A DNA stretch of 64,000 nucleotides, from contig JAUXNJ010000008.1 in assembly GCA_030682795.1 (NCBI GenBank), positions 18,753-82,752 of the forward strand. The letters run 5' to 3'. Source of the DNA: Sphingobacteriaceae bacterium. GTDB taxonomy: Bacteria; Bacteroidota; Bacteroidia; UBA7662. The notes below the pieces were generated by a model. That model worked only from the letters and a program-made list of their open reading frames with translations, ran no database searches and was not told where the DNA came from. Of this stretch, positions 4,746-64,000 are shown piece after piece; the stretch's first letter is position 1; each line of letters opens with the position of its first letter. Made by a program: the position numbers and the translations under genes.

Positions 4746-6131
4746 ATGAAAAAATGGATTGCCCTCATCCGCCAGGCCGTCAGTGGCCAGGAGCAAGACT
4801 ACACTACTGGCAGCATCCGCATGGCGATTTTTTTGCTAGCCATCCCCATGATGTTGGAGATGGTGATGGAGTCGCTATTTGCCGTGGTCGACATTTTCTT
4901 TGTAGGCAAGCTGGGCGTAGCAGCAGTGGCTACGGTGGGACTAACCGAATCGGTGATCACGGTGATTTATGCCATCTCTATCGGGCTCAGCATGGCAGCC
5001 ACCGCCATGGTGGCGCGGCGCATTGGTGAAAAGAAACCGAAGGAAGCTTCGGATACGGCTTTTCAAGCCATCGCCCTAGGAAGCATTACCGCCCTGGTGC
5101 TGGGTATTGTTGGTTACACACAGGCCGAAAACCTCCTGCGCCTAATGGGTGCCGAGGATGCAGTGATTGCTGCAGGGGTAGGCTATACCCGCATCATCTT
5201 TTTGGGAAACTTGCCCATCATGCTGCTTTTTTTAATCAACGGCGTTTTCCGGGGAGCAGGCAAGCCTGCCATTGCCATGCGTGCGCTTTGGTTGGCCAAT
5301 GGTATCAACATCCTCCTCGACCCTATATTGATTTTTGGCTTCTGGATCTTTCCCGAATTAGGCATCGAAGGCGCGGCTTGGGCTACTACCATCGGACGAT
5401 CGATGGGTGTGCTTTACCAACTCTACCATTTATTGTTGAAGCCTAGTCAAATCAGATTGACCAAAGCAAACCTGGTGTTCAAACTTTCTACCGTATGGAC
5501 GCTGGTGAAGGTGGGTGCAGGCGGTATGGGGCAGTTTTTGATCGAATCGGCAAGCTGGATTGCCTTAACCCGCATCGTGGCAACGTCGGGGAGTATTGCT
5601 GTGGCGGGCTGGACAGTGGCCATTCGGGTGGTGATTTTCACGCTTTTACCGGCCATGGGATTGGCAAATGCGGCTACTACTTTGGTGGGACAAAATCTGG
5701 GTGCCGGGCAACCCGAACGGGCCGAAGCCTCGGTATGGAAGGCGGCACTTTACAATGCCATTTTCTTGGGGAGCTGCTCGATTTTATTTATCCTCTTTGG
5801 TGACCAAATCATTGGCCTGTTTAATTCCGACCCTGGTGTTTTGCTGGTAGGGAAGGAAGCGCTTTTTGTACTTTGCCTGGGTTATGTGTTTTTCGCTTAT
5901 GGCATGGTAATCGCACAAAGTTTCAATGGCGCGGGTGACACCTTAACCCCCACCATCATCAACATCATGATGTTTTGGGTGCTAGAAATCCCCTTGGCTT
6001 GGTACATGGCCCTGCATTTGGTCTGGGGTGCTACTGGCGTATTTTGGTCGGTGGCCATGTGTCACAGTCTGCATGCCTTGGTTAGCGTCTATATTTTCAA
6101 AAAAGGCCGCTGGAAATTGGTGAAGGTTTGA
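4746..6131 (+). CDS. MATE family efflux transporter
   Basis: 461 aa with 12 predicted TM segments and an LAIPMMLE N-terminal block typical of NorM/MATE. A TAnnTTTG box at 4733-4740 lies so close to the ATG that the true start may be the internal Met at 4821. Confidence 0.8.
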   Translation: MKKWIALIRQAVSGQEQDYTTGSIRMAIFLLAIPMMLEMVMESLFAVVDIFFVGKLGVAAVATVGLTESVITVIYAISIGLSMAATAMVARRIGEKKPKEASDTAFQAIALGSITALVLGIVGYTQAENLLRLMGAEDAVIAAGVGYTRIIFLGNLPIMLLFLINGVFRGAGKPAIAMRALWLANGINILLDPILIFGFWIFPELGIEGAAWATTIGRSMGVLYQLYHLLLKPSQIRLTKANLVFKLSTVWTLVKVGAGGMGQFLIESASWIALTRIVATSGSIAVAGWTVAIRVVIFTLLPAMGLANAATTLVGQNLGAGQPERAEASVWKAALYNAIFLGSCSILFILFGDQIIGLFNSDPGVLLVGKEALFVLCLGYVFFAYGMVIAQSFNGAGDTLTPTIINIMMFWVLEIPLAWYMALHLVWGATGVFWSVAMCHSLHALVSVYIFKKGRWKLVKV

Positions 6132-6153
6132 GCTAATTTTCGGTTCTTGTTGC

Positions 6154-7011
6154 ATGCAACTGAAAATCTGGCTGGTCCTTGCACTTTTCCTCCTCATTGC
6201 CTGGGTAAGCAAGCTTGTTTATGGCAAAATACAGCGTGCGGGATTGGTGGTGGTTACCTACAACATCCGTTACGACACCGCCAAGGATGGCACGAATGCC
6301 TGGCCGCATCGCAAGCGGCGTTTGATAGGCGAATTGATGAGTCACCAACCAGCCATCATTGGCATGCAAGAAGTATTACACCATCAATTGCAAGATGTCA
6401 AAGAACTACTGCCTGCACGTTTTAAGTACAGCGGCGTGGGCAGAGACGATGGTGCCAACCAGGGCGAATATGCCCCTATTTGGTACGACAGCACACTTTT
6501 CGAGCTGCAACAGCAAGGCACCTTTTGGCTGTCCGACACCCCAACAGCTCCAAGCAAAGGCTGGGATGCTGCCTTGCCGCGGATTTGCACTTGGGTTGCC
6601 TTAAAGCACCTGCGCGATGGCCGACAGTTATGGGTGTTTAATACCCATCTCGACCACCAAGGCATCGTGGCTCGTGAAAAAAGCACGGCCTTGATTGCTG
6701 AAATGGCTGCAGCCATTCCCGATCATCCGCCGGTGCTGCTGCTGGGCGACTTCAACAGCACCCCACAAGAAGCACCCCATCAGGTGCTTCAAAACGAAGG
6801 CTGGCTCGACGCCCGTGCTACCGCCGAAAAGCGGGAAGGCCCTATAGGTACCTTTCCCGATTTCGATGGCAAGCGCCCCGAAAAGCGCATCGACTTCCTC
6901 TACTACAAAAATCTCCCACCCCCGTTTATATATATCGTAGATGGTTCACCCGACCGCCAGCCTCCTTTTGCATCCGATCATTCGGCAGTGGTGGTAGGTT
7001 TTCCATGGTGA
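6154..7011 (+). CDS. endonuclease/exonuclease/phosphatase (EEP) family protein with N-terminal membrane anchor
   Basis: N-terminal hydrophobic helix. EEP blocks VVTYNIRYD, GMQEV, NTHLDH and SDHSAVV are present. Confidence 0.8.
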   Translation: MQLKIWLVLALFLLIAWVSKLVYGKIQRAGLVVVTYNIRYDTAKDGTNAWPHRKRRLIGELMSHQPAIIGMQEVLHHQLQDVKELLPARFKYSGVGRDDGANQGEYAPIWYDSTLFELQQQGTFWLSDTPTAPSKGWDAALPRICTWVALKHLRDGRQLWVFNTHLDHQGIVAREKSTALIAEMAAAIPDHPPVLLLGDFNSTPQEAPHQVLQNEGWLDARATAEKREGPIGTFPDFDGKRPEKRIDFLYYKNLPPPFIYIVDGSPDRQPPFASDHSAVVVGFPW

Positions 7012-56624: not shown

Positions 56625-57518
56625 TTAGCGAGTTTTCAAAAGCTCCACCAGCACATTGGGGTAGTCGGTGATGATGCCACTTACGCCTAAATCAAGCATT
56701 TTTTGCATATCCTCGGGCTCGTTTACAGTCCAAGGAATGACCTGCATGCCTACTTGCCGGGCGTAGTCCATGAGCTTGGGAGTAACGAATTTGTAATTCG
56801 GACTATAAATCGTAGGAATGAAGCCCAGCGATTGAATGGCCTTTTCGGGTTGGAGCTGCAGCTCGGTCAGCAGCGCAATTTGCACGGGATAGTCCTTGCC
56901 ATTGATGTATTGCAGCGGCCGCACGTCGAAACTTTGGATGGTGGTGCGGTTCATTACATTGGCCTTGGCCAGCACTTGCAGCACCAGCTCGGCAAAGGTG
57001 TCGTAAGCGGGATGGTACTTGCCGTCGGTGGCGAGTTGAGACTTTATTTCGATGTTATAGCGAATGGGGGGCAGTTTGTATTCACGGCAATGGCGTTCAA
57101 CGGCTGTAATGAGCTCCGAGAGCAGGGGTTTGGGCACCGGCATTTTTTGCTGCTGGAGGAATTTGCTGTTGCCCTTGCTACCGCAGTCGTAATTGGCAAT
57201 TTCATTGTAATTGAGCTCGTATAAATTAAGCTGCTTGCCTTTGCTGCTGCTGATTTCGCGGCCGTTGGCATCTAAACAAATCTCGCTGTTCATCCAAGGC
57301 TCATGCGATACCACTACCAGCCGGTCTTTGCTAATCACCACATCCAGTTCAAGCGTATTTACCCCGAGGTTGAGGGCGGCGAGCATGGCGGGAATGCTGT
57401 TTTCGGGGTACAGTCCACGTGCGCCGCGGTGTCCTTGTACATCGATTTTGGGTTGTGCCTGCATAAAGACGGGGATGCTGAAGCAAAGGAGAAGCAGAAG
57501 TTTGTGCGGATGAAGCAT
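56625..57518 (-). CDS. glycerophosphodiester phosphodiesterase (secreted)
   Basis: Signal peptide followed by VQGHRGARGLYPENS and LELDV GDPD motifs. Confidence 0.8.
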   Translation of the reverse strand: MLHPHKLLLLLCFSIPVFMQAQPKIDVQGHRGARGLYPENSIPAMLAALNLGVNTLELDVVISKDRLVVVSHEPWMNSEICLDANGREISSSKGKQLNLYELNYNEIANYDCGSKGNSKFLQQQKMPVPKPLLSELITAVERHCREYKLPPIRYNIEIKSQLATDGKYHPAYDTFAELVLQVLAKANVMNRTTIQSFDVRPLQYINGKDYPVQIALLTELQLQPEKAIQSLGFIPTIYSPNYKFVTPKLMDYARQVGMQVIPWTVNEPEDMQKMLDLGVSGIITDYPNVLVELLKTR

Positions 57519-57586
57519 GGGCTAAAGATACGGATTGCTGAAAATTACAAGGAAAAAGCCGAAACAAGGCCTTTGGTTTTGGTGAT

Positions 57587-57619
57587 TTTGATTTTGTTTG
57601 CTAAATTGACATAGTTTTG
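57587..57619 (+). promoter_or_regulatory. consensus-like Bacteroidota sigma-A promoter (TTTG-N21-TAGTTTTG) for the InsA-like gene
   Basis: -33 TTTG at 57587-57590 and -7 TAGTTTTG at 57612-57619. The ATG lies 18 nt downstream. Confidence 0.45.
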
Positions 57620-57636
57620 CTAAAAAGATATATACC

Positions 57637-58059
57637 ATGAGTGATTTGCAATGTCCCGCCTGCAGTTCGCGCGATAAATTTACCAAAAGTGGCGTGGTGC
57701 AAGGGCGACAGCGCCATAAATGCGGCCACTGCGGCTATCACTTTTCGGTACAAAAAGCGGGTAAGCAAATCGACCAGTATTATGTGATCAAAGCCTTGCA
57801 ATTGTACTTAGAAGGCATCAGTTACCGCGAAATCGAACGTTTACTCGGGGTGAGCCACGTTTCGGTGATGAATTGGGTGCGCAAATATGGGGTAAAAGCT
57901 CCGGCACAAACCGACTATCATCCCACCTACAAAGTGCTCAGTCATGCCGAACTTACCGCCTACATGGAAAAGCGAGACAACATCCGCGGATTTGGCATGA
58001 TCATCACCGAGATAGGCGATAAGTTTATGCTCATTAAGTGGGAAAGGTTTAGAGATTAG
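57637..58059 (+). CDS. IS1-family InsA-like zinc-finger/HTH protein, orphan (no DDE transposase partner)
   Basis: CPACSSRDKFTKSG...HKCGHCGYHF is a zinc ribbon, followed by the HTH GISYREIERLLGVSHVSVMNWVRKYG. This matches the InsA architecture. No InsB or DDE ORF follows in any frame. Confidence 0.6.
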   Translation: MSDLQCPACSSRDKFTKSGVVQGRQRHKCGHCGYHFSVQKAGKQIDQYYVIKALQLYLEGISYREIERLLGVSHVSVMNWVRKYGVKAPAQTDYHPTYKVLSHAELTAYMEKRDNIRGFGMIITEIGDKFMLIKWERFRD

Positions 58060-58195
58060 TGGATTATCGGCTTAAATCGATGTAACTATAATCTTTACAA
58101 AAAACTATATACATTTTTTTTCATTGCGATTAATTTCCAAGGTTTGAAACAGCGCAAGGCCTCCTGCAGGCTGGTCGCTTCCTAAAACCGATTGC

Positions 58196-59533
58196 ATGAA
58201 AAAAAGATTGATTATCTGCTTCTTATGGCTTGGTTCTTTGCTGCTACTCGGAGCATTTGAAAGCAGCGCCCAAGGATCTGATGTGTATGGCAAAGGCATC
58301 CGTGTAAATTTGGATGAAAGTGGCCAAAAGCACTTTCGCATCATCAGCTGGCACCAAATGTGGTTGCGTTACAACGAAAACAACAGCGGTTCGATGCGCT
58401 TAGGTAATGAGCGTGAACGCACTACTGATTTTGGCATTCGCCGCTCGCGGATGTTGTTCATCACCCAGCTCAATCCCCGTTTTATGATCCTCACACATTT
58501 TGGTATCAACAACCAAAATGCCATCAGTGGAGGCTATTTGGGCAACGACGGCAAGCGGCCGCAGCTGTATGTACACGATGCCTGGACCGAATACAAGGTG
58601 TATAAAAACTACCTGGATGTAGGCATGGGTCTCCATTATTGGAACGGCATTAGCAGAAGCACCAACGCCAGCACCCTCAACTTTTTAACCCTCGACGCAC
58701 CCATTTTTAACTGGGCCACCATCGAAGCCACCGACCAATTTGCCCGCATGATTGGCCTTTATGCCAAGGGCAAAATCGGCAAACTCGATTACCGGGTGGC
58801 GATTAACGACCCCTTTTTAACCAATACCGCGGGCGTAATTGACTCGGGCAGGGCACAGTATTCGCCACGCAACGACCGCGCTGTTTTTCAGGGCTATTTC
58901 AACTGGCAGTTCCTCGATCAAGAATCTAATTACCTGCCTTTTGCTGTGGGCAGTTACTTGGGTACTAAAAAGGTCTTTAACCTCGGCATGGGCTTTTTAC
59001 AAAACAGCGAAGCCATGTGGTCGAAAAATGCCTTGGGAGATACGGCTTACCACCAGATGCTGCTCCTGAGCGTAGATGCTTTCCTCGACCTGCCGCTCAA
59101 TAAAACCAAAGGCACAGCATTCACCGCCTATGCCGTGTATTACAACTATGATTTTGGTCCCAACCAAGTACGCAACATCGGCATTCTCAATCCCGCCAGC
59201 GGTGGTGGGGCCCTGCGTGGCAATGCCTTCCCACTGCTTGGTACTGGGGATATTTTTTACGCCCAAGCTGGCTATTTGTTGCCCAAAGACTTGCTCAAAG
59301 GTCATGGCAAAATACAACCCTACGCCGCCTATTCTACCGCCATTTTTGAAGGGGTAAAAGATGCAGCTGGGGCCAAAGTGCCAGTAAATGTGCTCGATTT
59401 TGGCGCCAACTGGTACCTCGAAGGGCACCATGCCAAAATCACGATTAACTACCGCCATCGACCCGACTTCACCAATGTAAATGCGCTGAAGTACCGGCCT
59501 GAGATCACCCTCCAAAGTATGATTTACCTTTAA
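58196..59533 (+). CDS. outer-membrane porin-like beta-barrel (phosphate-selective porin O/P-like)
   Basis: Signal peptide, alternating amphipathic beta-strands and a C-terminal aromatic residue. It lies immediately upstream of the symporter pair. Confidence 0.5.
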   Translation: MKKRLIICFLWLGSLLLLGAFESSAQGSDVYGKGIRVNLDESGQKHFRIISWHQMWLRYNENNSGSMRLGNERERTTDFGIRRSRMLFITQLNPRFMILTHFGINNQNAISGGYLGNDGKRPQLYVHDAWTEYKVYKNYLDVGMGLHYWNGISRSTNASTLNFLTLDAPIFNWATIEATDQFARMIGLYAKGKIGKLDYRVAINDPFLTNTAGVIDSGRAQYSPRNDRAVFQGYFNWQFLDQESNYLPFAVGSYLGTKKVFNLGMGFLQNSEAMWSKNALGDTAYHQMLLLSVDAFLDLPLNKTKGTAFTAYAVYYNYDFGPNQVRNIGILNPASGGGALRGNAFPLLGTGDIFYAQAGYLLPKDLLKGHGKIQPYAAYSTAIFEGVKDAAGAKVPVNVLDFGANWYLEGHHAKITINYRHRPDFTNVNALKYRPEITLQSMIYL

Positions 59534-59544
59534 AAACTTCCCTC

Positions 59545-59805
59545 ATGGAAAAAAACAAAAGCATGCAGGCCTATTGGCGCCGCAATTTGCGCTACCTGCT
59601 CATTCTCCTTAGCATTTGGTTTGTGGCCAGTTTTGGCTTCGGCATCTTGCTCGCAGAACCCCTCAATGCCATCAAAATGGGCGGCTTCAAACTCGGTTTT
59701 TGGTTCGCCCAGCAGGGCTCCATTTATGTGTTCGTGATCCTCATTTTTGTGTATGTGCGGTGGATGAACCAGCTCGACAAAGACTTTGATGTAGACGAAA
59801 AATAA
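59545..59805 (+). CDS. Na+/solute symporter small subunit (DUF4212)
   Basis: 86 aa with 2 TM segments. It sits directly upstream of an SSS transporter, the TIGR03647/03648 arrangement. Confidence 0.75.
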   Translation: MEKNKSMQAYWRRNLRYLLILLSIWFVASFGFGILLAEPLNAIKMGGFKLGFWFAQQGSIYVFVILIFVYVRWMNQLDKDFDVDEK

Positions 59806-59823: not shown

Positions 59824-61512
59824 ATGGATTTATTAACCTGGACCTACATCATCGTAGGCATTACCTTCGCGGTATACATCGGCATCGCCATTTGGGCGCG
59901 CGCCGGATCAACAAAAGAGTTTTATGTGGCCGGCGGTGGGGTTTCGCCCTTGGCCAATGGCATGGCCACCGCGGCCGACTGGATGAGCGCGGCTTCGTTT
60001 ATTTCGATGGCCGGTTTGATTGGATTTATGGGCTACGACGGCTCGGTGTATTTGATGGGCTGGACTGGTGGCTATGTGCTGCTGGCTTTGTTGCTGGCAC
60101 CTTACTTGCGCAAATTTGGCAAGTTTACAGTGCCTGATTTCGTTGGAGAACGCTATTATTCTCAAACAGCCCGCTTAGTAGCTGTTGTTTGTGCCATATT
60201 TGTGTCGTTTACTTACGTGGCAGGACAAATGCGTGGGGTTGGTATCGTGTTTTCACGTTATTTGGAGGTTGACATCAATACCGGTGTGGTCATCGGTATG
60301 ATCATCGTGTTGTTCTATGCCGTGCTTGGTGGTATGAAAGGCATCACTTATACCCAGGTGGCGCAGTATTGCGTGCTCATCTTTGCTTATATGGTGCCCG
60401 CCATCTTCATCTCCATGCAGCTCACGGGCAATCCCATTCCCCAGCTCGGCTTTGGCGGCAATGTAAGCGACGGCACCCCGCTGCTCGACAAACTCGACGG
60501 CTTGCTCACCGAATTAGGCTTCAATGCCTACACCAACGGCAGCAAGTCGATGATCGACGTATTTTTCATTACCGCTGCCTTGATGGTGGGTACGGCAGGC
60601 CTGCCGCACGTAATTGTGCGCTTTTTCACGGTTCCCAGGGTGAAAGATGCCCGCAAATCGGCTGGTTACGCTTTGGTGTTCATTGCCATTTTGTACACCA
60701 CCGCACCGGCTATTGGTGCTTTTGGGATGTACAACATGATCAAAAACACCTCTGAAAAGGAAATTGCCAGTCTACCTGCCTGGGTTGACAACTGGAGTAA
60801 GACCGGCTTGATCAAAGTAGAAGACAAAAACGGTGATGGCAAAGTGCAGTATGTGGCCGATCCCGCGGTGAACGAGCTCACCATCGACAAAGACATCATG
60901 GTGTTGGCCAATCCCGAGGTAGCGCAGCTGCCCAATTGGGTGATTGGCTTGGTAGCGGCTGGAGGACTTGCAGCTGCCTTGAGCACAGCTGCTGGTTTGT
61001 TGCTGGTTATTTCTACATCCATTTCCCATGATTTACTCAAGAAGTCGCTGATGCCCAAAATCACCGAGAAGCGTGAACTCTTGGCGGCCCGTTTGGCTGC
61101 TACCGTAGCGGTGGTGATTGCCGGATATTTTGGCATCAATCCCCCTGGCTTTGTAGCGCAGGTAGTGGCTTTTGCCTTCGGATTGGCTGCTGCAAGTTTC
61201 TTCCCCATCATCATCATGGGTATTTTTAGCAAGCGCATGAACAAAGAAGGCGCCATTGCGGGCATGATCATCGGTTTACTATTTACGGCCAGTTACATTG
61301 TGTACTTCAAATTTTTGCACCCCGAATTAAATACTGCCGAAAACTGGTGGTTTGGCATCTCGCCCGAAGGCGTGGGCACCCTTGGCATGCTGGTGAATTT
61401 CGCAGTGTCGATGCTGGTGAGTAGATTTACTCCTGCGCCTCCTGCCAATATCCAGGATTTGATCGAAGACATCCGCATCCCTCGGGGCGCGGGCTCGGCT
61501 CAGGTGCACTAA
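59824..61512 (+). CDS. sodium:solute symporter (SSS family, ActP/VC_2705-like large subunit)
   Basis: 562 aa with about 13 TM segments. The N-terminal block is EFYVAGGGVSPLANGMATAADWMSAASFISMAG. Confidence 0.85.
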   Translation: MDLLTWTYIIVGITFAVYIGIAIWARAGSTKEFYVAGGGVSPLANGMATAADWMSAASFISMAGLIGFMGYDGSVYLMGWTGGYVLLALLLAPYLRKFGKFTVPDFVGERYYSQTARLVAVVCAIFVSFTYVAGQMRGVGIVFSRYLEVDINTGVVIGMIIVLFYAVLGGMKGITYTQVAQYCVLIFAYMVPAIFISMQLTGNPIPQLGFGGNVSDGTPLLDKLDGLLTELGFNAYTNGSKSMIDVFFITAALMVGTAGLPHVIVRFFTVPRVKDARKSAGYALVFIAILYTTAPAIGAFGMYNMIKNTSEKEIASLPAWVDNWSKTGLIKVEDKNGDGKVQYVADPAVNELTIDKDIMVLANPEVAQLPNWVIGLVAAGGLAAALSTAAGLLLVISTSISHDLLKKSLMPKITEKRELLAARLAATVAVVIAGYFGINPPGFVAQVVAFAFGLAAASFFPIIIMGIFSKRMNKEGAIAGMIIGLLFTASYIVYFKFLHPELNTAENWWFGISPEGVGTLGMLVNFAVSMLVSRFTPAPPANIQDLIEDIRIPRGAGSAQVH

Positions 61513-61517
61513 CCCAA

Positions 61518-61730
61518 ATGCGCGAACGGCGAACCATACAACAACTGCTCGGATTACTGGTGTTTTTTGCACTGGCCAGCCAATATCCGCTCCTCAGCAT
61601 CTTCAATAAGAAGGTGCTGGTGGGCGGATTGCCGCTGTTGTATGTGGGCTTGTTTGGACTTTGGTTGCTGTTTATACTCACCATTGGCTGGCTGGTTCGC
61701 CGGCGGCAAAAAAAGGAGGGCGACGCATGA
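61518..61730 (+). CDS. second DUF4212-like small membrane subunit, coupled to sensor kinase
   Basis: 70 aa with 2 TM segments. It aligns with the 59545 ORF (LNAIKMGGFKLGFW vs FNKKVLVGGLPLLYV). Its stop overlaps the kinase ATG (ATGA). Confidence 0.5.
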   Translation: MRERRTIQQLLGLLVFFALASQYPLLSIFNKKVLVGGLPLLYVGLFGLWLLFILTIGWLVRRRQKKEGDA

Positions 61731-64000
61731 GTACCTGGTGGGTGTTGGCCTTTTCGTTTGGTTACCTGGCTTTGCTCTTCGGCATTGCCTTCCAGGCAGA
61801 GCGATATGGACGCAAGGGCAAGAGCTTGGTGGCTAATCCCTACGTTTATGCGCTTTCGCTGGCGGTGTACTGCACGGCCTGGACCTATTACGGTTCAGTA
61901 GGTAGGGCGGCACAAGGAGGCATGCAATTTTTGGCGGTGTATACCGGTGCCAGCCTCATGATTCCGCTGTTTTGGACCGTCCTCCGCAAAATCATACGCG
62001 TTAGCAAGGTGCAGCGCCTCAGCACCATAGCCGACTTTATCAGCGGCCGCTATGGCAAAAATATTTCTTTGGGCATTTTGGTCACGGTGGTGAGTCTTTT
62101 TGGCATCATCCCCTACATTTCTATCCAACTCAAAGCCATCTCCAGCAGTTTTGCGGTGCTCACGGGCACCGATTTGGGCATTCAACAGGGCATTGGCCAT
62201 GACACCGCCTTGTACATTGCCATTGGCTTGGCTGCCTTTACCATTCTTTTCGGCACCCGCACCATAGAAACTACCGAGCGGCACGAGGGCATGGTTACTG
62301 CCATTGCTGTGGAGTCGATTATTAAATTGGTGGCTTTTTTGAGCATTGGCTTATTCGTCACTTTTTCCTTATTCGACGGTCCTGCCGCCATCTTTGAACA
62401 GCTGCTCAACCGGCCTGATTTGGAGCATTTGCTCGTTTTTAACACCGATTTTGCTTATGGGGAATGGTTTTGGGTGAATTTACTGAGTATGGGAGCGGTG
62501 ATTTTGCTGCCGCGACAGTTTCAGGTGGCCGTGGTGGAGAATGTAAACGAAAAGCATTTGAGCAAGGCCATGTGGCTGTTTCCGCTCTACCTTTTCCTCA
62601 TCAATTTATTTGTGTTGCCCATTGCTGCTGGCGGTAGTTTGCTCTTAGGCAAGGCCGTTGATGCCGATACCTACGTGCTGGCTTTGCCCCTTGCGGCCGA
62701 CCGGCCCTGGCTGGCGCTGCTTACGTACATTGGGGGATTTTCGGCGGCAACCAGCATGATCATCGTGTCGACCATCGCCATCAGCACCATGATCAGTAAC
62801 AACCTGCTGATGCCTGTTTTGGTTGGGGTAAAACTGCTGCAGCGGCGCTTGGCAACTCATTTTACGCCTTTTTTGCTGTATTCGCGGCGACTGAGCATTG
62901 TGCTGGTGTTACTGCTGGCCTATGCCTATTACCGTGGGGTAGGCGAGTTTTATTCGCTGGTGTCGATAGGCCTCATCAGTTTTGCGGCTGTGGCGCAATT
63001 TGCACCTGCCATGCTCGGAGGCTTGTACTGGAAGGGCGGCACCCGCATCGGTGCCGTGCTGGGCTTAAGCAGTGGCTTTGTGCTCTGGTTTTATACCCTG
63101 GTGCTGCCTTCCATGGCTGGGGCGGGTTTGTTGCCGCAGTCTTTGTTGCAAGCCGGCTTGTTTGGATGGTCTTGGCTACGGCCCACGGCATTGTTTGGAC
63201 TCGATACCCTCGATTTTTTGTCGCACGGCATGTTTTGGAGCTTAGGTGTGAACCTCCTCGGCTACGTTTTTGGCTCCTTCGCTTGGCCCCAAGGCTCTAA
63301 AGAGCGCAACCAGGCGGAGGTTTTTGTAGATATTTTCCGCTATTCAACCGTCTATGAAAGTTCAATTGTGTGGAAGGGGACAGCTTACATGCCCGACCTG
63401 CGCAGTTTGCTCGAACAGTTTTTGGGTAAGGAGCGCGCAAGACAAGCCTTGGTTGATTTTGAGAAAAAGTATGAAATTGATACCAAGGCCAGTCAGTTGG
63501 CCGATCCCCGTTTGGTGACCTATGCTGAGAAAATTTTGGCAGGCGTCATTGGCACAGGTTCGGCCCGCATCATGGTGGCTTCAGTTGTAAAAGAGGAGGA
63601 AATCAGTCTCGAAGAAGTGGTCAACATTCTGCGCGAATCGCAGCAACTGCTGTTGGTAAACCGGGAGCTGCGCCGCAAATCGGTGGAGCTCAAACGGGCT
63701 ACGCAGCAATTGCAGCTGGCCAACAACAAATTACTGCAGCAGGATGAGCTGAAGGACGAGTTTCTATACACCGTTACCCATGAGTTGCGCACGCCGCTTA
63801 CTTCCATCAGGGCCTTGAGTGAGATTTTACACGACAATCCAGACCTCGATGAAGCGCAGCGCGAGCAATTTCTCTCCACCATCGTTAAAGAAACCGAACG
63901 CCTCACCCGGCTCATCAGTCAGGTACTCGACCTCGAAATGTACGAATCGGGCAAGCAGCAACTCGATTGCAGCTGGTGCAGTGTTGCGGAGCTGGTTGAA
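61727..64000 (+). CDS. sensor histidine kinase with N-terminal SSS-transporter-like input domain (CbrA/CrbS-type), 3' end outside window
   Basis: Open frame of 758 codons running to the window end. The N-terminal 480 aa form a polytopic SSS-like domain (TIADFISGRYGKN vs TVPDFVGERYYSQ in the transporter). The HisKA H-box ELKDEFLYTVTHELRTPLTSI lies at 63740-63800. Confidence 0.8.
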   Translation, partial: MSTWWVLAFSFGYLALLFGIAFQAERYGRKGKSLVANPYVYALSLAVYCTAWTYYGSVGRAAQGGMQFLAVYTGASLMIPLFWTVLRKIIRVSKVQRLSTIADFISGRYGKNISLGILVTVVSLFGIIPYISIQLKAISSSFAVLTGTDLGIQQGIGHDTALYIAIGLAAFTILFGTRTIETTERHEGMVTAIAVESIIKLVAFLSIGLFVTFSLFDGPAAIFEQLLNRPDLEHLLVFNTDFAYGEWFWVNLLSMGAVILLPRQFQVAVVENVNEKHLSKAMWLFPLYLFLINLFVLPIAAGGSLLLGKAVDADTYVLALPLAADRPWLALLTYIGGFSAATSMIIVSTIAISTMISNNLLMPVLVGVKLLQRRLATHFTPFLLYSRRLSIVLVLLLAYAYYRGVGEFYSLVSIGLISFAAVAQFAPAMLGGLYWKGGTRIGAVLGLSSGFVLWFYTLVLPSMAGAGLLPQSLLQAGLFGWSWLRPTALFGLDTLDFLSHGMFWSLGVNLLGYVFGSFAWPQGSKERNQAEVFVDIFRYSTVYESSIVWKGTAYMPDLRSLLEQFLGKERARQALVDFEKKYEIDTKASQLADPRLVTYAEKILAGVIGTGSARIMVASVVKEEEISLEEVVNILRESQQLLLVNRELRRKSVELKRATQQLQLANNKLLQQDELKDEFLYTVTHELRTPLTSIRALSEILHDNPDLDEAQREQFLSTIVKETERLTRLISQVLDLEMYESGKQQLDCSWCSVAELVE

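Follow-up and report, generated by a model that had tools for sequence, protein, structure and literature searches.

An InsA-like gene that stands alone, without a transposase partner, may be the remnant of an insertion or a DNA-binding regulator domesticated by its host. We asked which of the two describes a gene of this kind in the window, the whole 64-kb stretch of DNA analysed here. The gene (positions 57637..58059, forward strand) encodes a 140-amino-acid, InsA-type protein without a catalytic domain and is the sole sizeable open reading frame between a GDPD phosphodiesterase gene, to which it is divergent (56625..57518, reverse strand), and a gene for an outer-membrane porin-like protein of 445 amino acids (58196..59533, forward strand), which has a weak match to the NCBIfam ExtI porin model (1.8e-22) and no Pfam match. 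Beyond the porin, on the same strand, lie genes for the DUF4212/TIGR03647 small subunit of a sodium:solute symporter (59545..59805) and for its VC_2705-family large subunit (59824..61512; TIGR03648, 885 bits). A sensor histidine kinase gene follows (61727..64000, forward strand; long N-terminal membrane domain, HisKA at residues 676-742); it extends past the end of the window, and we treat it as context only. An earlier note on this DNA had likewise placed the gene between a phosphodiesterase gene and a porin/symporter/sensor locus. A second copy of the gene is absent from the 64-kb window.

The protein consists of a C4 zinc ribbon, a three-helix HTH (residues 47-84) and an alpha/beta tail (residues 97-135), which bears out the previous description of an InsA-like product with a zinc ribbon and HTH. 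The zinc site had been read as C2-HC2; in a 78-sequence alignment, C6, C9, C29 and C32 are invariant and H27 is variable, so that it is a C4 site. Pfam reports a generic HTH_23 match at 26 bits, with zinc-ribbon matches below threshold. Because the Zn_ribbon_InsA model (PF03811) reaches only E=0.19 (12.0 bits, under its cut-off of 26.1), the protein derives from an IS1 subgroup other than that of E. coli InsA. The NCBIfam IS1 transposase model NF033558 aligns with E=8.6e-21 over model positions 1-125 of 199, at 74.8 bits; this model is an equivalog with a curated cut-off of 100 bits, above the score of our protein. Given that score and the coverage of only the N-terminal 125 of 199 positions, the label "IS1 family transposase" used by some sources is not justified. 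Names for the protein in public databases are "transposase-like", "IS1 family transposase" and "IS1/IS1595 N-terminal zinc-binding domain protein". Lrp/AsnC regulators also join an HTH to a small alpha/beta effector domain, and a comparison with them gave no significant fold match over both domains. An Rfam search of 57300-58400 at permissive thresholds returned no structured RNA, and a published TIGR03647 riboswitch candidate, which sits directly before DUF4212 genes, was considered as an explanation and set aside as unrelated.

From which part of an IS1 element does the protein come? BLASTP finds 36% identity to a 219-aa single-frame IS1 transposase, and plasmid tblastn matches are all annotated IS1 elements with less than 40% identity. 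Annotated IS1 elements from Tenacibaculum, Methylobacter and Methanomethylovorans all have a -1 frameshift at an A-run just past the first catalytic Asp; without the shift, the three give ORF-A products of 144-150 aa that share a conserved 0-frame tail, AGSGLLLIELGK. An HMM of the domesticated family scores these ORF-A products 3-13 bits above the matching fused transposases (119.7 vs 106.5, 101.0 vs 89.8 and 105.0 vs 101.9 bits), and the family's tail sequence GAGLIVTELGD aligns to AGSGLLLIELGK of IS1 ORF-A. The recognition helix, VSHVSVMNWV, is nearly identical to that of active IS1 transposases. Judged by these alignments, the 140-aa protein has as its homologue, tail included, the ORF-A (InsA-type) product that a frameshift-type IS1 makes without the shift, and "InsA-like" is strictly right because the family profile fits IS1 ORF-A better than it fits frameshifted transposases. 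The BLASTP match to the fused transposase had raised a different reading, with the tail as a truncated DDE core (beta1-beta3). This was rejected, since the reference IS1 elements frameshift and ORF-A fits better.

The features on which transposition depends have been lost. We searched the 64-kb window and 81 loci by tblastn with four IS1 C-terminal halves and found nothing significant, in keeping with the reported lack of an InsB/DDE partner. The lack of a frameshift motif also holds beyond the window: 79 of 80 genes have no A6+ run in codons 96-122, where the reference IS1 elements carry theirs, and the window reads GAAAAGCGAGAC at this point. The position of the first catalytic Asp is variable among the orthologous genes, the GG tip of IS1 ends is kept in none of 69 unit pairs, and no direct repeat that could be a target-site duplication flanks the cassette borders. 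Set against the features by which ISfinder defines IS1, the cassette retains the zinc finger and HTH and lacks the DDE domain, the A-run frameshift and the GGnnnTG ends; the 8-9 bp target-site duplication and multiple copies per genome are likewise absent from the window and the top 80 loci.

This loss has not been accompanied by decay of the gene. A search of 5.8 billion proteins returned 2109 relatives; the best 120 of these 2109 are all 136-144 aa long and 61-94% identical, and come from Hymenobacter, Spirosoma, Tunicatimonas, Flagellimonas, Microscillaceae, Cyclobacteriaceae and many metagenomes. The 90% protein cluster to which the window's own protein belongs carries the NCBI label of a "Sphingobacteriaceae bacterium" MAG. 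With one genome taken per GTDB species, at least 556 species loci have a relative. The best 80 of these at least 556 loci, from which copy number per genome was judged, fall on 80 different contigs from Cytophagales, Flavobacteriales and Chitinophagales. Fifty-one columns of the 78-sequence alignment are invariant, among them all four cysteines, the recognition helix of the HTH and a large part of the C-terminal tail (T124, E125, G127, D128, K129, M131, I133, W135, E136, R137 and F138). Median pairwise dN/dS is 0.10 overall, 0.17 in the zinc region, 0.05 in the HTH and 0.085 in the tail. Sequences in a neighbour-joining protein tree cluster by family and order, congruent with taxonomy; pairwise identity between orders is 56-72% and dS is saturated. 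The gene belongs to a conserved family under purifying selection and is vertically inherited; it is not a decaying fragment.

Its surroundings are conserved as well. Counting the window, the porin gene lies directly downstream in 70 of 81 loci, and the conserved porin has no Pfam domain and a weak ExtI-porin match. The gene after the porin encodes either DUF4212 plus a VC_2705-type symporter, as in the window, or an MHS-family MFS transporter in other lineages, and an acetyl-CoA synthetase gene adjoins in six loci. Upstream neighbours vary between families and are stable within each. The linkage is also seen from the porin side: in a metagenome search, the regulator was directly upstream in 57 of 70 porin loci with enough upstream sequence. 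Pairwise identities of regulator and porin correlate (rho 0.66), with medians of 65% for the regulator vs 43% for the porin. The gap between the two genes has a median of 135 nt, and a terminator-like hairpin occurs in it in 1 of 66 loci; the gap in the window is without one. DUF4212 transporters show fitness phenotypes on lactate and D-alanine and have been given a role in carboxylate or D-alanine transport (10.1101/072470); the operon therefore most likely imports small carboxylates. The earlier note had left the choice between remnant and domesticated regulator undecided, proposing that a single copy with conserved synteny would indicate domestication. The balance falls on the side of domestication, with one copy in the window, the top 80 of at least 556 species loci on 80 contigs, the same porin in 70 of 81, a taxonomy-congruent tree and a dN/dS of 0.10.

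We then turned to the DNA flanking the gene. Across the loci, a unit of the form TTGCTAAA-N4-TATA(G/T) stands just 5' of the ATG. The window has two such units in direct tandem, TTTGCTAAATTGACATAG and TTTGCTAAAAAGATATAT, with a period of 19 bp (57597..57635, forward strand; individual units at 57597-57614 and 57616-57633). They score 21.3 and 22.7 bits with a position weight matrix (PWM) that finds no other strong match in the 64 kb and whose best score in 20 shuffles was 15.6 bits. At least one unit occurs within 130 nt upstream in 80 of 81 loci, two or more occur in 70, and a spacing of exactly 19 bp is seen in 69. Scanned over 935 kb made up of 12-kb loci, the PWM gave 220 matches: 160 stand at most 140 nt upstream of the gene, 22 are inverted and stand at most 300 nt downstream of it, and 33 are elsewhere. 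Terminal inverted repeats had been reported as absent from this locus; that has to be revised in view of the two tandem units and a degenerate third copy at 58086-58112. Of the short repeated motifs listed before, the pair AAAAAGATATATAC / AAAAACTATATAC is real and proves to be a piece of these IS1-IR-derived units. The motif GAAACA...AAGGCCT is indeed present twice, but its upstream copy is missing in an 88%-identical relative, so this repeat probably arose by chance. Its downstream copy, ahead of the porin start, is surrounded by locally conserved sequence.

The tandem units coincide with a promoter element. Read from the sequence, TAGTTTTG at the junction of unit 1 and unit 2 (57612..57619, forward strand) is a Bacteroidota-type -7 box (TAnnTTTG), and 36 of 69 loci have a match to TAnnTTT[GA] at this junction. 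Further loci, which we did not count, appear to fit a -7 box with the register shifted by 2 nt. Of the sigma-A promoter proposed earlier, this -7 box stands, whereas the -33 TTTG at N21 does not: no -33 element is conserved at canonical spacing, and a TTG lies 17-21 nt upstream in only 7 of 69 loci. A sigma-70 promoter scan gave no sites, and the sigma-70 model does not apply to Bacteroidota. We propose that the region 57597-57635 comprises the putative operator and promoter of the cassette.

A related element lies on the other side of the gene. Most orthologues carry it as a plainly inverted copy, CTATAG-N3-5-TTAGC-N4-6-TATA, that starts 1-6 nt past the stop codon. Searching the 70 nt that follow the stop finds this pattern in 57 of 81 loci, compared with 2.3% of background windows, and an extended pattern is found in 44 of 81 loci, compared with 0.34% of background. 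The window's own copy, CTATAatcTTTACaaaaaaCTATATAC (58086..58112, from a repeat search), is degenerate and quasi-palindromic, with ambiguous orientation, and is kept in L084, an 88%-identical relative. The fixed-spacing PWM misses it because its spacing differs by 1-2 nt, and a variable-gap pattern is needed.

Both sets of repeats resemble the ends of genuine IS1 elements. The Tenacibaculum IS1 is 744 bp long and bounded by GGCATTGCTAATTTAATATAG and an inverted copy of it; the Methylobacter and Methanomethylovorans elements end in GGCATTGTTAAT and GGCATTGGTAAG. In these three distant hosts the ends read GGCATTG(C/T/G)TAA, which fits the IS1 terminal inverted repeat signature GGnnnTG in ISfinder (PMC10425158, table 8). 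The PWM was trained on domesticated loci only. In the Tenacibaculum locus its top match (18.6 bits) is the left end of the IS1 and its next match is the right end; the Methylobacter right end is the top match of its locus. On both sides of the gene, the domesticated units match the inner part of the genuine IS1 terminal repeats, TTGCTAA...TATAG, and this retained inner part would be the protein-binding part. The arrangement is shared too, with a repeat-to-ATG distance of about 46 nt in IS1 and in Hymenobacter and an inverted copy directly after the stop codon in both. From this match in sequence and position, the upstream and downstream repeats derive from IS1 inverted repeats. Because the inverted repeats have been retained along with the gene, what looked like an orphan gene is better seen as an entire exapted IS cassette.

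Units of the same kind are also found before porin genes that have no regulator beside them (L023, L029, L040, L042, L043, L051, L059, L099, L106, L153 and L167; L099, L106, L153 and L167 are metagenome porin loci). Several Hymenobacter species have an extra MFS gene between regulator and porin, and in these a second, geneless repeat set lies before the porin and after a terminator. Such a set consists of two direct units, about 165-250 bp of interior and one inverted unit; between L023 and L042 the interiors are unrelated and the ends conserved. L059 has a second porin paralogue with its own unit. Six of 13 porin loci without a regulator in the 2.5 kb upstream have no detectable sites either, so control of this kind does not extend to the whole porin family.

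Together, these observations make it probable, in our judgement, that the locus is an exapted and immobilised IRL-insA-IRR IS1 cassette that acts as an autoregulated switch for the porin and transporter operon. Three ancestral parts would persist: the left-end repeat, now tandem-duplicated and overlapping the -7 box; the 0-frame ORF-A (InsA-type) gene, encoding the zinc-ribbon and HTH end-binding domain with a short tail; and the right-end repeat directly past the stop codon. In the simplest history, an IS1 copy would have lost the segment from the ORF-A stop to the right end, which holds two members of the DDE triad, the second Asp and the Glu, and then become fixed; the first Asp would also have gone, as would the frameshift signal and the GG cleavage tips. 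The protein is predicted to bind TTGCTAA-N5-TATAG units through its zinc ribbon and HTH, as E. coli InsA binds IS1 ends. In E. coli IS1, both InsA and the transposase bind IRL and IRR via the zinc finger and HTH, and InsA represses the promoter that overlaps IRL (PMC12428005). We propose an autoregulated promoter on the strength of this repression at the IS1 left end and of the -7 box at the unit junction: the tandem units over the box, once bound, would regulate the regulator gene's own transcript. That transcript probably does not stop at the end of the regulator gene but reads on into the genes for the porin and the carboxylate transporter, with the porin-like gene (58196..59533) as the presumed first gene under control. 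The inverted unit between regulator and porin may serve as an auxiliary operator, through looping or as a roadblock, and the geneless repeat sets would put further porin genes under the same control. DNA binding by the protein, repression in preference to activation, co-transcription and an inducing signal are all predictions of this scheme.

A bolder version, which we offer tentatively and with some doubt, is that the capture of a complete IS1 unit (left end, insA and right end) predates the radiation of the major Bacteroidota orders, and that the unit became a portable promoter-operator-repressor module, whose geneless derivatives recruit more porins and whose ORF-A tail has become a new effector or oligomerisation domain. 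If this is true, it is a bacterial transposon-derived regulatory network built from a transposon's own DNA-binding protein and terminal repeats.

Could the protein activate the operon it is linked to? Binding to the tandem units, with their 11 nt-spaced TTG/-7 arrangement included, might recruit RNA polymerase and give positive autoregulation of the regulator-porin-transporter transcript. A weak promoter, with no conserved -33 at canonical spacing, could need an activator, and the geneless repeat sets before porin genes would suit one. The units, however, overlap and follow the -7 box, and in Flavobacteriaceae unit 2 abuts the ATG, which is the typical position of a repressor; InsA, the only characterised homologue, is a repressor (PMC12428005). 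We regard activation as a live alternative, and an unlikely one. It could also be that the repeats are bound by another factor in place of this protein, such as a response regulator of the neighbouring two-component system.

Also live, and distinctly less probable than activation, is a role as a host-kept transposition inhibitor that binds the ends of incoming IS1 elements and blocks their transposase, an IS1 immunity to which the porin operon would be incidental. In E. coli, InsA wins the competition with the transposase for both ends, and transposition is all but abolished (PMC12428005); the same unit is present in the IS1 ends of Bacteroidota, and the recognition helix, as noted, differs little from those of active transposases. 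Immunity nevertheless leaves unexplained the phylum-wide linkage to one porin gene, the inverted site retained past the stop codon and the geneless repeat sets before porins. The roles of IS1 inhibitor and operon regulator are compatible with each other.

The remaining alternatives are largely excluded. An InsA-only IS1 derivative moved in trans by full-length IS1 transposases, with a preference for sites upstream of porins, would account for the repeats kept at both ends in IS-like orientation and for the shorter, MITE-like geneless versions of 175-265 bp. Against such a non-autonomous mobile element stand the GG tips, which are needed at IS1 ends and kept in 0 of 69 unit pairs; the spread of the top 80 of at least 556 loci over 80 different contigs; a protein tree that follows taxonomy, with upstream synteny stable within families; between-order identities of 56-72% with saturated dS, the opposite of recent mobility; and the unrelated interiors of the geneless copies in L023 and L042. 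We hold such an element to be very improbable. An ordinary decaying IS1 fragment without function, as the missing transposase partner and the transposase or transposase-like database labels might suggest, has next to no chance of being right, given a length of 136-144 aa in all 120 best matches, a dN/dS of 0.10 that extends to the tail, 51 invariant residues in 78 sequences, and synteny and flanking repeats kept across several orders.

Domesticated transposase DNA-binding domains, together with terminal repeats, are a textbook route to new circuits in eukaryotes. To our knowledge, such domestication is hardly documented in bacteria, and we know of no case established for IS1 or for a phylum-wide bacterial operon regulator. 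Our literature search found no description of this family, of IS1/InsA domestication or of a system in the porin/DUF4212 context. IS-derived bacterial open reading frames are routinely dismissed as transposase fragments, and the family described here corrects a systematic mis-annotation as "IS1 family transposase". Hundreds of Bacteroidota species carry it, and the candidate operator is precisely defined, so that binding and regulation are directly testable. The locus would also offer a handle on how the uptake of small carboxylates, through transporters of the acetate, lactate and pyruvate type, is controlled in abundant environmental Cytophagales, Flavobacteriales and Chitinophagales.

The exapted-switch reading finds its closest functional precedent in E. 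coli IS1. Like E. coli InsA, the protein corresponds to the unshifted first-frame product of IS1, with an N-terminal zinc finger and HTH; its cognate end repeats overlap its own promoter and recur at the other end, and by analogy its expected action is autorepression. Unlike E. coli IS1, the cassette has no insB/DDE frame, A6C signal or GG tips and is not mobile. The protein is also larger, 140 aa with a conserved alpha/beta tail as opposed to 91 aa for E. coli InsA, and its gene is a chromosomal one, inherited vertically and linked to a host operon, as that of E. coli InsA is not.

Another group of relatives is formed by the active IS1-family elements with GGCATTG ends, such as those on Tenacibaculum finnmarkense plasmids (CP116296.1 and CP116298.1) and in Methylobacter and Methanomethylovorans. 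With these the family shares 35-36% identity over zinc ribbon, HTH and ORF-A tail, the same recognition helix, the TTG(C/T)TAA...TATAG motif and the position of the repeats relative to the start and stop codons. The elements themselves differ in being 744 bp long and plasmid-borne beside other mobile genes, with an A-run -1 frameshift, a complete DDE domain and GG tips; in the cassette, by contrast, the left repeat is duplicated with a 19-bp period.

A eukaryotic parallel is SETMAR, in which a domesticated transposase DNA-binding domain still recognises Hsmar1 ITRs (PMC8327481). SETMAR and Hsmar1 resemble our proposed system in that the host has kept a transposase DNA-binding module and terminal repeats would serve as its cis-regulatory sites. 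The system described here differs from SETMAR in being bacterial, in coming from a different transposase superfamily, and in resting on one copy kept in place with both its ends, not on a dispersed network.

Immediately 5' of the porin start codon lies the stretch GGTTTGAAACAGCGCAAGGCCTCCTGCAGGCTGGTCGCTTCC (window 58140-58190), which is mostly kept in L084, an 88%-identical relative, and in which an imperfect hairpin (AGCG...CGCT) is possible. This stretch may belong to the 5'-UTR as an element of it, or a different regulator may act there. A second conserved motif, GCTACTTAGCCGG or CTACTTGG, is specific to the genus Hymenobacter (loci L017, L021, L022, L025, L026, L030 and L051, among others). 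It is found 60-110 nt past the regulator stop codon, after the inverted unit and before the porin gene begins, and may represent the porin promoter or some other binding site.

Repeat sets with no regulator gene between them were found 5' of porin genes at L023 (7903-8107), L029 (7932-8216), L042 (7936-8148) and L051 (6469-6672), and upstream of the porin in L105/L110 and L153/L167. Each comprises two direct units at 19 bp, ~165-250 bp of non-conserved DNA and one inverted unit. These geneless sets look either like MITE-type offshoots of the cassette or like regulatory regions that have been duplicated. In L019, from an Algoriphagus MAG, the regulator frame itself (6001-6420) is broken after 74 codons and resumes past the stop; the porin and the flanking repeats are intact. 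The interruption reflects either a pseudogene in this MAG or an assembly error.

The regulator and an acetyl-CoA synthetase gene are divergently transcribed in L034, L050, L055 and L077 (Chitinophagales and one Flavobacteriales MAG), and the tandem units therefore lie within a shared divergent promoter region. This arrangement hints that the synthetase gene, acs, may share this control, and points to acetate as the substrate.

Many more proteins of ~130-150 aa (P0126, P0141, P0150 and others) align with the regulator over its full length at 30-48% identity, some of them with family-like tails such as ..VGEKYMLMKW. Some of these relatives (P0127) are probably ORF-A products, the unshifted first-frame proteins, of active IS1 elements; others might be domestications that are more distant or that arose independently. 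Among reference IS1 elements, those of L082 (1207-1865), L088 (498-1180) and L089 (501-1183), come from three distant hosts: a flavobacterium, a gammaproteobacterium and a methanogen. Their ends (GGCATTG.TAA) are almost identical, and the A-run at which they frameshift is the same. The 0-frame ORF-A tail, ..AGSGLLLIELGK.., is likewise conserved among the three; either overlap with the transposase frame constrains it, or an InsA-type tail is functional in mobile elements too. In L082, a further unit-like sequence, ATTGCTACATAAAG (1137-1153), lies beyond the Tenacibaculum IS1 on its left side, with 22 nt between it and the terminal repeat. It is either a coincidence or a hint at how a left end might become tandem.

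Directly 3' of the symporter in the window is a long sensor histidine kinase ORF (61727-64000), the start of which is overlapped by a 70-aa hydrophobic ORF (61518-61730). The HisKA domain of the kinase occupies residues 676-742; the ~650 residues at its N-terminus have the appearance of a transporter-like membrane domain with multiple passes. This architecture, a membrane domain followed by HisKA, is reminiscent of carboxylate sensors of the CbrA/CrbS type.
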